Positions 18,250-23,653 of a stretch of DNA of 32,784 nucleotides are shown here, piece after piece. Position 1 is the first letter of the stretch; every line of letters begins with the position of its first letter. The DNA is from a virus (Duplodnaviria > Caudoviricetes), in the IMG/VR virus record IMGVR_UViG_3300048598_000307, positions 1 to 32,784 of that record. The stretch is one strand, 5' to 3'. The notes under the pieces were generated by a model, which was not told where the DNA came from, searched no databases, and saw only the letters and a program-made list of their open reading frames with translations. Position numbers and translations under genes: made by a program.

Positions 18250-18821
18250 GGCTGCCTCACGGGATAGGCGCCGTCGCGGTCCTGGTCTTTCGGCCAGGGC
18301 TCGAAGGCGGAAAGCATGCGAAGGAATTCTGGGGCCGCGGCGAGATCGCCCGTGACGTCGTCGATGACGACGGTGGAGCCGATGTCGAGCGTCGCGATCG
18401 CAATGTCGTGGTCGTCGTAGCCCTCGGCATAGGCCTGGGCGGCGGCGGTGATCGAGAACGTGCCGAGATCCGGAACGCTGAAGCCGTTCAACAGCATCAT
18501 CGCCCCAGTCATCGCCGGGAACAGGCCGGGGCCGGCCTTGTCGCCGAGGAAGCGCGGCTTGCCCTTGTTCGGGTTCTTGACCAGGACAGTGAGGCGCAGG
18601 CCGAGTGCGCCCTGGAAGCGGCGACCGACCTTCTGATCTGTCGGGTTGAGCTGGCGCCAGCCGAGGGCGAGGCACGGCGTCTTGCGGACGATCGCCTTGA
18701 ATTCCGCGATCGTCATCGGGTCCGGAACGAGGTGGAAATCCCACTTCGCCGGCAGGAAGACGGTGCGCAGCCGCGCCTCGATCGCGGTGAAGGACGCGCT
18801 GATCGGATCCACGGCGCTCAC
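18246..18821 (-). CDS. gp37-like tail terminator/completion protein
   Basis: GTG 18821 overlaps gp36 stop; synteny between gp36 and gp38. Confidence 0.75.
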   Translation of the reverse strand: MSAVDPISASFTAIEARLRTVFLPAKWDFHLVPDPMTIAEFKAIVRKTPCLALGWRQLNPTDQKVGRRFQGALGLRLTVLVKNPNKGKPRFLGDKAGPGLFPAMTGAMMLLNGFSVPDLGTFSITAAAQAYAEGYDDHDIAIATLDIGSTVVIDDVTGDLAAAPEFLRMLSAFEPWPKDQDRDGAYPVRQP

Positions 18822-19243
18822 AGTCCACGCTCCCCGTGCCGGCCGAACATGCGCTCGCGATCCTGCGTCCGGCCGACGCTGCTGGGCTGGGACGGCGCGA
18901 TACCGTCGAGCGTGACCGTTCCAGCCGCGATCTGCGTCAGCCAGGCGACGATGTCCTTCCGGTCGTTCTTGGCCTGCTCGGGCGGCTCGCGATCGCCGCC
19001 GACGCAGAGGTCGTAGCGGGCGAGGATGCACGAGGCGCGGGTGATGACCTGCGGCGCGAGCTGCAGCGGCACGACATAGCGCTTGCGCAGATAGCTATCG
19101 ATGATGCCGTCCGCATCGGCGATCGCCTGCTCGACCGGCGTTTCGTTCACCGTCTCCGGCAGCTCGCCATCGACGGAGGAGAGCCGCAACATCTCCGTCT
19201 CGCCGAAGCGGCCGATCATGTCCTGGACGGTGGCGTAAGCCAT
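18818..19243 (-). CDS. gp36 head-tail adaptor (DUF1320)
   Basis: MAYATVQDMIGRFGETE, AIADADGIIDSYL..RY..PL, LARYDL, WL..IAAG. Confidence 0.92.
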   Translation of the reverse strand: MAYATVQDMIGRFGETEMLRLSSVDGELPETVNETPVEQAIADADGIIDSYLRKRYVVPLQLAPQVITRASCILARYDLCVGGDREPPEQAKNDRKDIVAWLTQIAAGTVTLDGIAPSQPSSVGRTQDRERMFGRHGERGL

Positions 19244-19382
19244 GGTTGTTCCCAAAGCGACGGCCGCCCCGCACGCCAGCGGCCGTCAGATGCGTGGGGA
19301 TGTCCGGGAGGGGCCAAGCCGAAGCTTTCCCTCCTAAGCGGATCCGCAGCGTGCGAGCGGAGGCCGCACCCCTCTCCGGGGT
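19244..19382 (-). ncRNA. Candidate structured intergenic RNA (four hairpins, kissing loops)
   Basis: Four stems incl. a cUUCGg tetraloop; loop CGCACGC complementary to loop GCGUGCG. See findings. Confidence 0.55.
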
Positions 19383-19616
19383 TTATCTCTTGGCCTTGTT
19401 GGCCTTCGGCGGCGCGGCGCCGTCCTGGTAGATCACGGTCAGCAGCGGCTCGGCCTCGATGATGGCGAGCTGCTCGGCGCTGAAGTGATCGGCCGGATAG
19501 GTCTCGTCAGCCGGGTGAGCCACGCCACCGCGGCGAAAACCGTCATGGGCGCGGCTGATGATGCGGACGGTCGGCTCGGCCTTCGCCTCGGCGGGCTTTT
19601 CGGCGGCTTCGATCAT
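19383..19616 (-). CDS. gp35/HI1506-like protein
   Basis: GFRRGGVAH...FSAEQLAIIEAEPLLTV; SD GGAG before ATG 19616. Confidence 0.85.
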   Translation of the reverse strand: MIEAAEKPAEAKAEPTVRIISRAHDGFRRGGVAHPADETYPADHFSAEQLAIIEAEPLLTVIYQDGAAPPKANKAKR

Positions 19617-19690
19617 GTTTGTCTCCAGGTGAAGGACGCTCTCTCTGGAACCGCCGGCGGCGCCGGCGGCTCGTGAGAAGGCGCCGCCGA

Positions 19691-20590
19691 TCAGGCGAGC
19701 CAGGGGCAGACGAGCAGCTCGGCGGTGCCCTTGTAGACGTTGGTCGCGCCGGCAGCGTCGCGCTCGGCGTTGAGGATCTCGAGGCCGGCTTGTTCGAGCG
19801 CCGGCGGCACGACGAGGAGACGGGGACGAACACCCAGCGGGCGGTCGAAATCGCCTTTCATGCCCTGCATGGCGGCGCGGGCGCTGCCATAGTTCGCCTT
19901 GTTCAGGGTCTGCTTCGAGCCCCAGGCGAACTGCCAGAAGCCGAAACCGACATTGTGCCGGGCATCCGTGCCGTAGACGAATTCCTTGCGGTCGAAGACG
20001 TTGTCGTCGGTCGGATTGTCCTTGCGGACGAGGTCCCAGGCCTTGCGCTTCTGCAGGATGATCGGCTTCAGCATGCGGCTGTCGTCGATCAGGAACCAAG
20101 GCGTGCCGGAGCCGCCATCGGTGTTGGCGACCGAGTTGACGGTCTGGCCGTCTGCCGCGAGCACCGGATGGTCCGTGTCGAAGAAATACTGCTTGTCGTA
20201 GCAGGCGGTGGCAAAGCCGGCCTTAAGCAGGCTGAAGACGAGCTGGTCGTAATGGGAGTTCGACGCGGCGCCGAGCTCGGTGAACATCGGCGTATAGATG
20301 CCGAGGTTGTCATCCTCGATATCGTCCCTGCTGACCGAGATGGTCAGCTCATAGGACTTGTTCTTGATGGTGTACCCGGCCTGGGCGATGTTGTGGACGA
20401 CACGGTCGCCGGCCCATTCCCGAACGTTCGGGATTTTGCCCAGCCAGCCATAGTCCTGTTCGCGCGTCGTCGAAGGAACGGTGGTGGCGATCCGGCCGAA
20501 CTGCGAGGCAGCCTGGCTGTCGAGACCGGACTTGAAAGCGGCATTGAAGCCGATGAAGAGCGTCCGGAGGGCGTTCTGGTTAAGCTGCAT
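19691..20590 (-). CDS. Major capsid protein (gpT)
   Basis: YGWLGK.P..REW.GDR, IEDDNLGIY, FFDTDHPV, GFGFWQFAWGS, LLVVPPALE. Confidence 0.96.
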   Translation of the reverse strand: MQLNQNALRTLFIGFNAAFKSGLDSQAASQFGRIATTVPSTTREQDYGWLGKIPNVREWAGDRVVHNIAQAGYTIKNKSYELTISVSRDDIEDDNLGIYTPMFTELGAASNSHYDQLVFSLLKAGFATACYDKQYFFDTDHPVLAADGQTVNSVANTDGGSGTPWFLIDDSRMLKPIILQKRKAWDLVRKDNPTDDNVFDRKEFVYGTDARHNVGFGFWQFAWGSKQTLNKANYGSARAAMQGMKGDFDRPLGVRPRLLVVPPALEQAGLEILNAERDAAGATNVYKGTAELLVCPWLA

Positions 20591-20623
20591 GACTGAGCCT
20601 CTGTGACGGGATGGCCGGCGGGG

Positions 20624-21037
20624 TCAGTAGCCGGAGCGGACCCAGACGCCGAGCGCGTCCACGTCCATGATCTTGCCGGCCACCGAACGGGTGTTGGTGC
20701 CGTTGGTCTTGGCCACCGTCTGGTCGTCGACGATGTAGCAATCGGTGCCGATATCGGCGGCGGTGATGGCGTCACCGGCCGAGGAGTTCGCCCAGCGGAA
20801 GGTGCCGCGGCGGATCTTGACGTTGACCGCGTCAGCCGCGCCGGCGCCGTTGTCGACGAAGGCTTCGCAGCGGCCGACGCCGCGCAGCGTGGTGGCGACT
20901 GCGCCGGGAGTGGCGCGACCGGCCGCATCGAGCGCGACCAGGGCGCCGGCGTAGAACACCTTGGCGGCGGCGGCCGGGCGTTCCAGCTGCTCGGACTTCT
21001 TGGTCGTCGTGTTGCGGTCGGCGGTCAGGGCGGCCAT
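20624..21037 (-). CDS. Putative head decoration/cement protein
   Basis: MAALTADRNT...CYIVDDQTVAKT...AGK...GVWV family found between I and T in Mu-like phages. Confidence 0.75.
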   Translation of the reverse strand: MAALTADRNTTTKKSEQLERPAAAAKVFYAGALVALDAAGRATPGAVATTLRGVGRCEAFVDNGAGAADAVNVKIRRGTFRWANSSAGDAITAADIGTDCYIVDDQTVAKTNGTNTRSVAGKIMDVDALGVWVRSGY

Positions 21038-21072
21038 GGCTCAGTGCTCCGTTACGTTTCGGTCAGGCGGCC

Positions 21073-21720
21073 TCAGAGGGTCGCCTTCTCCAGCTCGGCC
21101 TTGCTCTTGGCCATTTGCGCGGGATCGATGCCCATCAGCTGGGCGACGGACGCCTCTTCGGCGTCGAGCCCGCCCTGGACAGGCTGAGGCGGCCTTACGA
21201 TGCCGCCGCTATGGATCGAGACGAGGGCATTGACCTCCGCCTCGACAGCGGCCGCGTCCTTCTGGTGACGCGAGATGTAGTGGTCGCGCATCGGCTTGAT
21301 CGGCTTGCCGGCGTCGATCGCGGCGTCGATGAAGGCGGTGGCATCCTTCTTCGCCTGGTCGGCGGAGAGCGTGTTGAGCTGCGACTGCAGCGAGATCACG
21401 GTCTGTCGCAGTTCAGCTTCGGAACCGTTGCGCGACATCAGCTGGGTCTGCAGCTCGGTCGGGGAGAGCTTCTCCAGATCGATCCCGGCCGCCTTGCAGT
21501 GGGCCGAAATCGCCGCGAGCTTGCCTGCATCCGCAGCCTTCGCGGTGGCGCCAGCGACGATATCGTCGGATTTGGCGTCCGCGGCGAGACCGAGCGCGGT
21601 CGTGACCTTGCCGAGGGTGGAGCCGGCGAGCGCATGCGCCGAAACGGAGGTCAGCATCGTGTCCTCGGCCGCATCGGCGGAAAGACCGAGCGCCTGGCGA
21701 AGCTTGGCGAGGAAGTCCAT
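21073..21720 (-). CDS. Scaffold protein Z (internal in-frame start in protease gene)
   Basis: GGAG 7 nt before ATG 21720 (MDFLAKLRQALGL), same arrangement as Mu I/Z. Confidence 0.65.
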   Translation of the reverse strand: MDFLAKLRQALGLSADAAEDTMLTSVSAHALAGSTLGKVTTALGLAADAKSDDIVAGATAKAADAGKLAAISAHCKAAGIDLEKLSPTELQTQLMSRNGSEAELRQTVISLQSQLNTLSADQAKKDATAFIDAAIDAGKPIKPMRDHYISRHQKDAAAVEAEVNALVSIHSGGIVRPPQPVQGGLDAEEASVAQLMGIDPAQMAKSKAELEKATL

Positions 21721-22173: not shown

Positions 22174-22231
22174 CCCTGCCAATCTGGCGGGATCGGATAT
22201 GACGCGGCACGCCCCGATATCGGGGCGTCAG
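22174..22231 (-). promoter_or_regulatory. Late promoter copy 2 (PI-like): perfect 20-bp palindrome plus -10 CAGATT
   Basis: ACGCCCCGATATCGGGGCGT at 22209-22228. Confidence 0.8.
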
Positions 22232-22265
22232 GTCGTGTCGATGCTTTCGGGAGGGGCCGAGCGGA

Positions 22266-23509: not shown

Positions 23510-23653
23510 AGCCCCCTCCGAAGGTCGAGCCTCTGGGAAGCCCGCTGGCGGGCGTTCCCGGTTTCAGCCCCATCGCCCCGGAAAATCTTTTGAAACTGAA
23601 ATTGAAACAGCTGTGGGCGATTGGCGCGGGATCCGCGCCCCCCGCCCAACCTG
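23510..23653. other. Intergenic AT-rich-core element, candidate strong gyrase site
   Basis: GAAAATCTTTTGAAACTGAAATTGAAACAG (23581-23610) in a 144-bp gap within otherwise overlapping head genes. Confidence 0.4.

Follow-up and report, generated by a model that had tools for sequence, protein, structure and literature searches.

The pRNA of phage phi29, an RNA of ~120–170 nt with two complementary loops on separate arms, is essential for packaging. GOLLD and ROOL are phage and prophage RNAs of unknown function that often lie near tRNA islands and contain kissing loops (PMC12286853), and manA, an RNA of less than 200 nt, forms cages via intermolecular kissing loops (10.64898/2026.07.01.735769). 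Mu-gpT-DE was originally described in PMC5737381 and appears under this name and the Rfam accession RF03012 in 10.1101/2020.02.04.933952. RNA-based counter-defence is also in print (PMC10651486, 10.1101/2023.03.15.532788), and prophages with UG27 reverse transcriptases carry variable ncRNA arrays, which are a different system (10.64898/2026.09.22.753630).

Here we describe an apparently uncatalogued kissing-loop RNA, hereafter family A, whose sequence would place it among the orphan phage RNA motifs. It lies in a DNA of 32,784 nt (the window, meaning this whole analysed stretch), a Mu-like prophage-type record with its late head genes on the minus strand. No Rfam family matched the element at E ≤ 10, including the ribozyme, riboswitch and CRISPR-DR families, and it is not a tRNA match in Rfam either. 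An earlier note on this DNA could not tell whether the element is the motif known from downstream of Mu-like gpT genes. This identity is now excluded: the Mu-gpT-DE model had no match at E ≤ 10 in the element's own genome or in a 157-nt scan, and its 49-bit score was not reached. Both are orphan structured RNAs of the Mu-like head region; however, Mu-gpT-DE is a model of 53 positions found directly downstream of gpT (going by its name), whereas the element spans ~140 nt one gene further downstream, and two of its nine copies follow a capsid gene other than gpT. The same model matched none of the tested elements of a short family introduced below, and gave two weak matches elsewhere.

GOLLD and ROOL set a precedent for phage RNAs that adjoin tRNAs. 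The element is far smaller, has one kissing pair only and shows no family-model match to GOLLD, ROOL or manA. A conserved kissing-loop helix, as in those three, covaries in the short family, which we infer to be linked to A, and barely varies in A itself. Unlike an RNA anti-CRISPR built on a solitary repeat, the element matches no CRISPR repeat among those in Rfam. A likeness to counter-defence cargo lies in its site, which also holds tRNA-Met and PF24729 (Acb2/Tad1) genes. We found no description of the element in the literature. Supplementary text of PMC10690425 and PMC8632094 contained none of its short motifs, and a term search of 10.64898/2026.09.15.751765 gave no matches. It could still be listed as a candidate in the alignment files of PMC10690425 and PMC5737381.

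Results

Genomic setting

On the minus strand, the major capsid gene gpT (19691..20590; PF10124, E 2e-126) is followed by a gp35-like FluMu_N gene (19383..19616; PF17891, E 4e-10) and then by the gene for the gp36 head-tail adaptor, Phage_Mu_Gp36 (18818..19243; PF07030, E 2e-31; phrog_195). A gap of 139 nt separates the gp35 stop from the gp36 start, and the element (19244..19387, minus strand) begins ~308 nt past the gpT stop, beyond gp35. The gap had been called unusual in an operon of otherwise overlapping genes. It is large, but it is not unique, as 9 of the 16 late-gene junctions listed have gaps of 33–197 nt (small ORFs were seen by eye in two of these gaps) and the other seven overlap or nearly touch. 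Two further large gaps of the late operon, at 23510–23653 (144 nt, including an A/T-rich stretch) and 22183–22265 (83 nt), both contain inverted repeats. Read-through or a hidden ORF in the spacer was rejected, since spacer lengths of 130–147 nt break the frame.

Neither a sigma-70-type promoter (in 18700–21200) nor, within the gap, an intrinsic terminator on the minus strand was found; 2.5 kb held three terminator sites, with 1.3 expected. On the plus strand, the region of the P1 hairpin (19368–19382) resembles a weak intrinsic terminator for antisense transcription, with the end of gp35 as its T-run. At its left end the record contains host DNA, with a serC leader RNA (RF00517, 63 bits) at 178–229. 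Four RNA runs were available as contigs only, which carry no information on transcript ends or levels; two 151-nt pieces lie on gp35, and a contig from one relative spans the region. Contigs of runs X19/X20 come from a soil relative in which the P4 region (window 19246–19291) has hardly changed but the remainder of the slot has diverged, possibly a tenth member of family A.

A second structure, separate from the element, occupies the space between gpT and gp35. This long stem-loop with internal loops (19617..19690, minus strand) is constant: all 12 gpT-type relatives aligned have it, irrespective of their cassette, and 3 of its 18 pairs show double-sided changes. A step-down of expression from capsid to neck and tail genes, as proposed for the element, fits this stem-loop better, making it the better candidate for that role.

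Hairpins and alternative folds of the element

The sequence, the coordinates and the four hairpins on the minus strand, all within the 139-nt gap, are as described earlier. Family A comprises nine distinct copies, which score 128–160 bits with a model (R1) that was itself built from those nine. The RNA starts with an A-rich leader with a C-run (19374..19387), which overlaps the gp35 stop and resembles the leaders of unrelated RNA cassettes found at the same site. There follow P1 (19368..19382), P2 (19338..19367), P3 (19307..19334), a conserved junction (19296..19306; 7 of 9 columns invariant), P4 (19259..19287) and a conserved 3' tail (19250..19258; 6 of 7 columns invariant) that contains the probable gp36 ribosome-binding site.

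The hairpins differ in how they are conserved. P2 covaries, with double-sided changes at five of nine pairs and 97% of the cells paired across the nine copies. All 18 columns of the P4 stem are invariant, compared with 20 of 44 four-fold sites of gp36. The loops that face each other in the kiss, 19348–19356 in P2 and 19268–19278 in P4, are invariant at 7 of 9 and 8 of 11 columns, respectively. P3 is variable in sequence (3 of 30 columns invariant), yet the hairpin is formable in every copy, with a UUCG loop in seven of the nine; the short family lacks it.

P1 as drawn in the earlier note can form in all nine copies, but so can an alternative in which its G-run pairs with the junction C-run (19296–19299) and the leader with 19251–19257. 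The local and the long-range fold lie within ~3.5 kcal/mol of each other throughout; the local form is slightly favoured in eight copies, the alignment consensus prefers the long one, and no double-sided change decides between them. The 3' tail is able to pair with the leader or with the junction C-run, and a 5'/3' closing helix is likewise formable. As single sequences, the copies do not fold above chance (z −1.70 for the window, z −1.2 to +0.8 across the nine copies). The minimum-energy fold of the window's copy is not the four hairpins but a long helix that zips both loops together, and this zipped fold is also the minimum for two other copies, L001 and L018 (three of nine in all).

The two folds of similar energy at the 5' end, and the zipped form of three copies, are what a switch might use, one that senses a ligand or a protein, for example a cyclic-nucleotide immune signal, and opens the next ribosome-binding site; in two copies the next gene is acb2, of the anti-CBASS type. 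We nevertheless give this reading a very low probability. The zipped fold is not the best one in six copies, no riboswitch family matches, and acb2 also follows the unrelated cassettes B and C and tRNA. Moreover, the downstream genes differ in function (gp36 in seven copies, acb2 in two), unlike the single function expected downstream of a translational riboswitch.

The loop–loop helix

Positions 19349–19355 and 19270–19276 form seven Watson-Crick pairs plus two flanking G-U pairs, as had been reported. Random 9-mer/11-mer pairs from the window reach seven such pairs in 0.25% of 100,000 draws. A loop–loop match of at least 6 bp between some two hairpins, however, exists in 74 of 111 comparable 450-nt regions and is thus common, making a single sequence weak evidence; generic kissing descriptors were similarly unspecific, matching 22 of 203 control windows. 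Within A, six of the nine pairs never vary. One pair is U-U in L025 and another is U-U in L005, the seventh is C-G in five copies and A-G in four, and no compensatory change was found in the kissing loops of the nine. Since these loops barely vary, the A copies alone do not prove the pairing.

The short family provides what A does not. It consists of two hairpins and a short variable linker (~65 nt) and occurs in other alphaproteobacterial phages, with six sequences, three of them in isolated phages; its sites are L169:4607-4680, L733:2380-2448, L762:1362-1433 and L799–L802. L169 and L733, which have two hairpins only, emerged from a screen. BLAST with these two led to Microcystis phage Mwe-Yong1, Ochrobactrum phage POA1180 and Paracoccus phage Pben1 together with its host copy, and a model of the family (R2) led to L762 (E 8e-8). 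The Pben1 element sits two genes before the small terminase, outside the head slot. Three of seven loop–loop pairs change on both sides in this family, and 41 of 42 cells (97.6%) pair over the six sequences, Pben1 breaking one kissing pair. Two of the three double-sided changes stem from L762, which was found by R2, whose scoring ignores the kiss. The third stems from L733, which, like L169 and the candidate L744 below, was noticed partly because its loops match. Loop covariation, for which the earlier note had proposed a test on collected gp35–gp36 spacers, is absent within A but present in the short family.

A and the short family can be placed in one register, with a common 7-bp helix, three further double-sided differences and, at position eight of the kiss, A/C variation opposite G in both. 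The permutation p is 0.049 within the short family and 0.0003 overall, values that are inflated by relatedness. Because its covariation falls in A's register, the short family supports the kissing pairing of A. In the short family, the second hairpin looks like the apical stem and loop of A's P4. Against a link, R2 scores A's P4 at only 8–12 bits (E 0.8–4.8), below chance matches. We regard homology between the short family and the window's element as likely. A more distant candidate in the same slot, L744, was obtained with R1 (18.5 bits, E 0.0044). It has the four-helix layout of A and different loops that still form seven Watson-Crick pairs. Seven pairs between predicted loops were reached at just two of 730 leader-motif sites, those of L744 and of L005, a member of A.

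On these comparisons we regard the P2–P4 kissing pairing as well supported, be it within one molecule or between molecules. The claim of a pseudoknotted structured RNA is supported by conservation, by the covariation of P2 and by the loop–loop covariation in the probably related short family, though not by the folding of single sequences. The latter fact, and the perfect invariant inverted repeat that is P4, could instead mean that the conserved feature acts as DNA, as an inverted-repeat binding or recombination site, or that the loop match is incidental. We consider this extremely unlikely: the exchanges between G-U and G-C and the UUCG loops fit an RNA of the coding strand, the loop–loop helix has double-sided changes, and each genome has a single copy.

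Distribution of family A

A search with the gp36 protein, which is independent of the RNA sequence, gave 53 loci with eight further distinct A copies among them. All nine copies belong to Bosea-type Mu-like phages (the three with a named host are from Bosea), at one copy per genome. No new member appeared among the matches listed from viral DNA-pattern scans and checked by nhmmer, in the 1/64 of a metagenome scan made with too loose a pattern, or in 111 Bosea-genus genomes, 401 family genomes, phage and plasmid records and further gp36 loci. With no further members found, family A is narrow in the collections searched. L785 and L786 gave model matches at E 0.03–0.04, that of L785 overlapping the end of a capsid gene, and L746 (E 0.57) has no clear loop match. 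The genome searches, which included the 401 family genomes, revealed no conserved host target of at least 25 nt for the element.

Among the 18 closest non-redundant relatives (gp36 identity at least 67%), nine carry A, eight carry the unrelated structured families B and/or C, and one carries neither. The A-carriers are rejected as a single clade on the gp36 tree (5 changes, p-AU 0.0002), and a shuffle test on that tree showed no significant clustering of them (46/500). A lies downstream of gpT/FluMu_N in seven copies, and downstream of a phrog_1005 capsid and a small gene that is not FluMu_N in two.

This pattern bears on a possible role in morphogenesis, in which an essential, pRNA-like RNA would make a prohead-bound ring or bind gp35. 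The two complementary loops, which sit on different arms, the formable closing helix and the position among head genes would all suit such an RNA. The phi29 pRNA is, however, required and hence expected in all close relatives, whereas the element is exchangeable, has no Rfam match and is missing from half of the 18 relatives, including phages 97–98% identical upstream. It also occurs with two capsid families and with unrelated upstream genes. An essential role is therefore unlikely and the pRNA-like reading exceedingly improbable; a universal partnership with gp35 is likewise unlikely, given the two carriers with another capsid family and another upstream gene.

An exchangeable slot and its other cargo

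Pairs of near-identical phages show that cargo is exchanged at this site, with A as one optional cassette. L022, which carries A plus acb2, and L003, which carries C, share 98% identity through the 2106 nt that precede the slot. Between L005 (with A) and L027 (with B plus acb2), identity is 97% across 638 nt, ends at the leader (19374..19387) and is 94% from gp36 on. In a census of 111 non-redundant gp36 loci, the slot held A in 9, B in 14, C in 7, tRNA-Met in 8 and acb2-like genes in 12, counts that include one truncated B, one partial C and one tRNA-Met at an uncertain position. Most close relatives have some structured spacer there.

Family B is a multi-branched RNA of ~100 nt with covariation at 8 of 22 pairs (e.g. 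L008:2388-2490, L026:2151-2250). Found in 14 of the 111 slots and in 6 of 36 later loci, it is more widespread than A, and it has no match in Rfam. Family C is an RNA of 150–190 nt (L003:2310-2503, L023:2103-2260, L028:1967-2125, L004, L711, L733) whose only Rfam resemblance, to Pseudomonadales-1, is weak and below threshold (E 2.3). Apart from the tRNAs, no slot RNA reached the Rfam cut-off. A tRNA-Met (CAU) lies in or near the post-capsid slot of L154, L193, L211, L713, L720, L723 and L798, in some cases directly before family B or acb2. Acb2/Tad1-hairpin genes stand just before gp36 at L001:2262-2498 and in 11 other slots, and eight of the eight acb2-like proteins tested match PF24729. At L014:2119-2496 this place is taken by a PF13876 (gp49/gp66) gene, which we take to be of the Tad2 family. 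Other spacers look structured (L148:4398, L161:4246, L172:2011, L164:3320, L007:2358, L181:2868, L719, L712 and L746), and most of them begin with a similar leader. The L164 spacer looks like a cyclic-dinucleotide riboswitch by eye only, with no Rfam match.

The A-rich, C-run leader recurs across the cassettes. Its pattern, which was defined after seeing the copies, is present in 9/9 A, 11/13 B and 5/6 C, compared with 1.5% of random 40-mers, and in L211 and L713 it follows directly on the CCA end of a tRNA. RNAs also stand in tandem, as tRNA-B (L211, L713), B-C (L004) and B with the short family (L762); none of the nine A copies is in tandem with another slot RNA.

An intergenic RNA whose sister cassettes stand in tandem beside tRNAs could belong to an undescribed class of self-cleaving or processing RNAs, cutting the late transcript or freeing the adjoining tRNAs, and the invariant bases of P4 and of the junction, together with a loop–loop tertiary contact, would be in keeping with this. 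It seems to us very unlikely, as no Rfam ribozyme matches at E ≤ 10, the core motifs of hammerhead, twister, pistol and HDV were not seen by eye, and the minimal family is reduced to two hairpins and a variable linker.

Position relative to the downstream gene

All nine A copies end 5–14 nt upstream of a start codon, seven directly before gp36 and two before an Acb2 gene. The probable ribosome-binding site is paired in most A folds, and its G pair is mostly paired in folds in which the loops are blocked. The short elements of L733, POA1180 and Pben1 also shortly precede a start codon. Given this constant closeness to a start codon and the usual pairing of the ribosome-binding site, the main rival to the reading that we favour below is a cis element of the mRNA. 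The kissing fold would then cap the 5' end of the downstream message, which after a cut in the leader would be under threat from RNase J-type 5'-to-3' decay, and/or hide the next ribosome-binding site. In this way the element would tune neck, tail or Acb2 output, and the different cassettes would be interchangeable means to that end; the structured spacers of most close relatives would agree with it. We consider this rival possible, but less likely than the favoured reading.

Several observations run against a role in cis. In many Mu-like relatives gp36 follows with hardly any gap. The conserved tail is displaced in two of the nine A copies, lying 13–14 nt from the start codon, and L744 has no comparable tail, its P4 ending more than 20 nt from the start. 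The slot also accommodates tandem RNA arrays and tRNAs, which are not cis regulators, and the constant stem-loop after gpT is already present.

Discussion

We tentatively favour, at slightly less than an even chance, the reading that the element is a conserved optional RNA cassette with kissing hairpins, which is cut from the late transcript as a stand-alone small RNA and probably acts in phage–host conflict. From its position, the element is likely to be co-transcribed with the abundant capsid message. A cut at the A-rich leader, which may serve as processing site and/or crossover point, would then free the small RNA, to which the kissing fold could give stability, and the released RNA might help the phage to counter host defences, for instance by acting as a decoy.

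Three lines of argument lead to this reading. First, the element is exchangeable and indifferent to its neighbours, which speaks against its being essential or tied to a particular gene. Second, tandem stacking with tRNAs and the common leader suggest that the cassettes are freed by cleavage as individual products; the tandem arrangements of tRNA with B, of B with C and of B with the short family are as would be expected of separate RNA products. Third, Acb2 and tRNA-Met as occupants of the same slot suggest a part in host conflict. This last argument is one of guilt by association: an anti-defence role appears likely from the slot neighbours only, and acb2 follows A in just two of nine copies. 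Counting against the stand-alone small RNA are the signs of a cis element, in that A ends just before a start codon in nine of nine copies and is mostly predicted to pair the ribosome-binding site, as a cis element would.

A bolder version, which we rate as improbable, extends the idea to the whole slot. Alphaproteobacterial Mu-like phages would then carry, after the capsid gene, a set of swappable small non-coding RNAs, each opening with a common leader, next to tRNA-Met and Acb2. Among these RNAs the kissing family (A, the short form and L744) would act as a loop-assembled sponge of a host immune sensor or signal.

If this were true, the kissing-loop family would be a new class of counter-defence, the RNA counterpart of the Acb2 sponge, and if the slot RNAs are counter-defence factors, the slot would be a place to mine for more. 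Near-identical phages that exchange whole RNA elements, tRNAs or an anti-CBASS-type gene in one slot can serve as natural swap controls, and the existence of a natural minimal form of ~65 nt in isolated phages makes the function of phage orphan RNAs directly testable.
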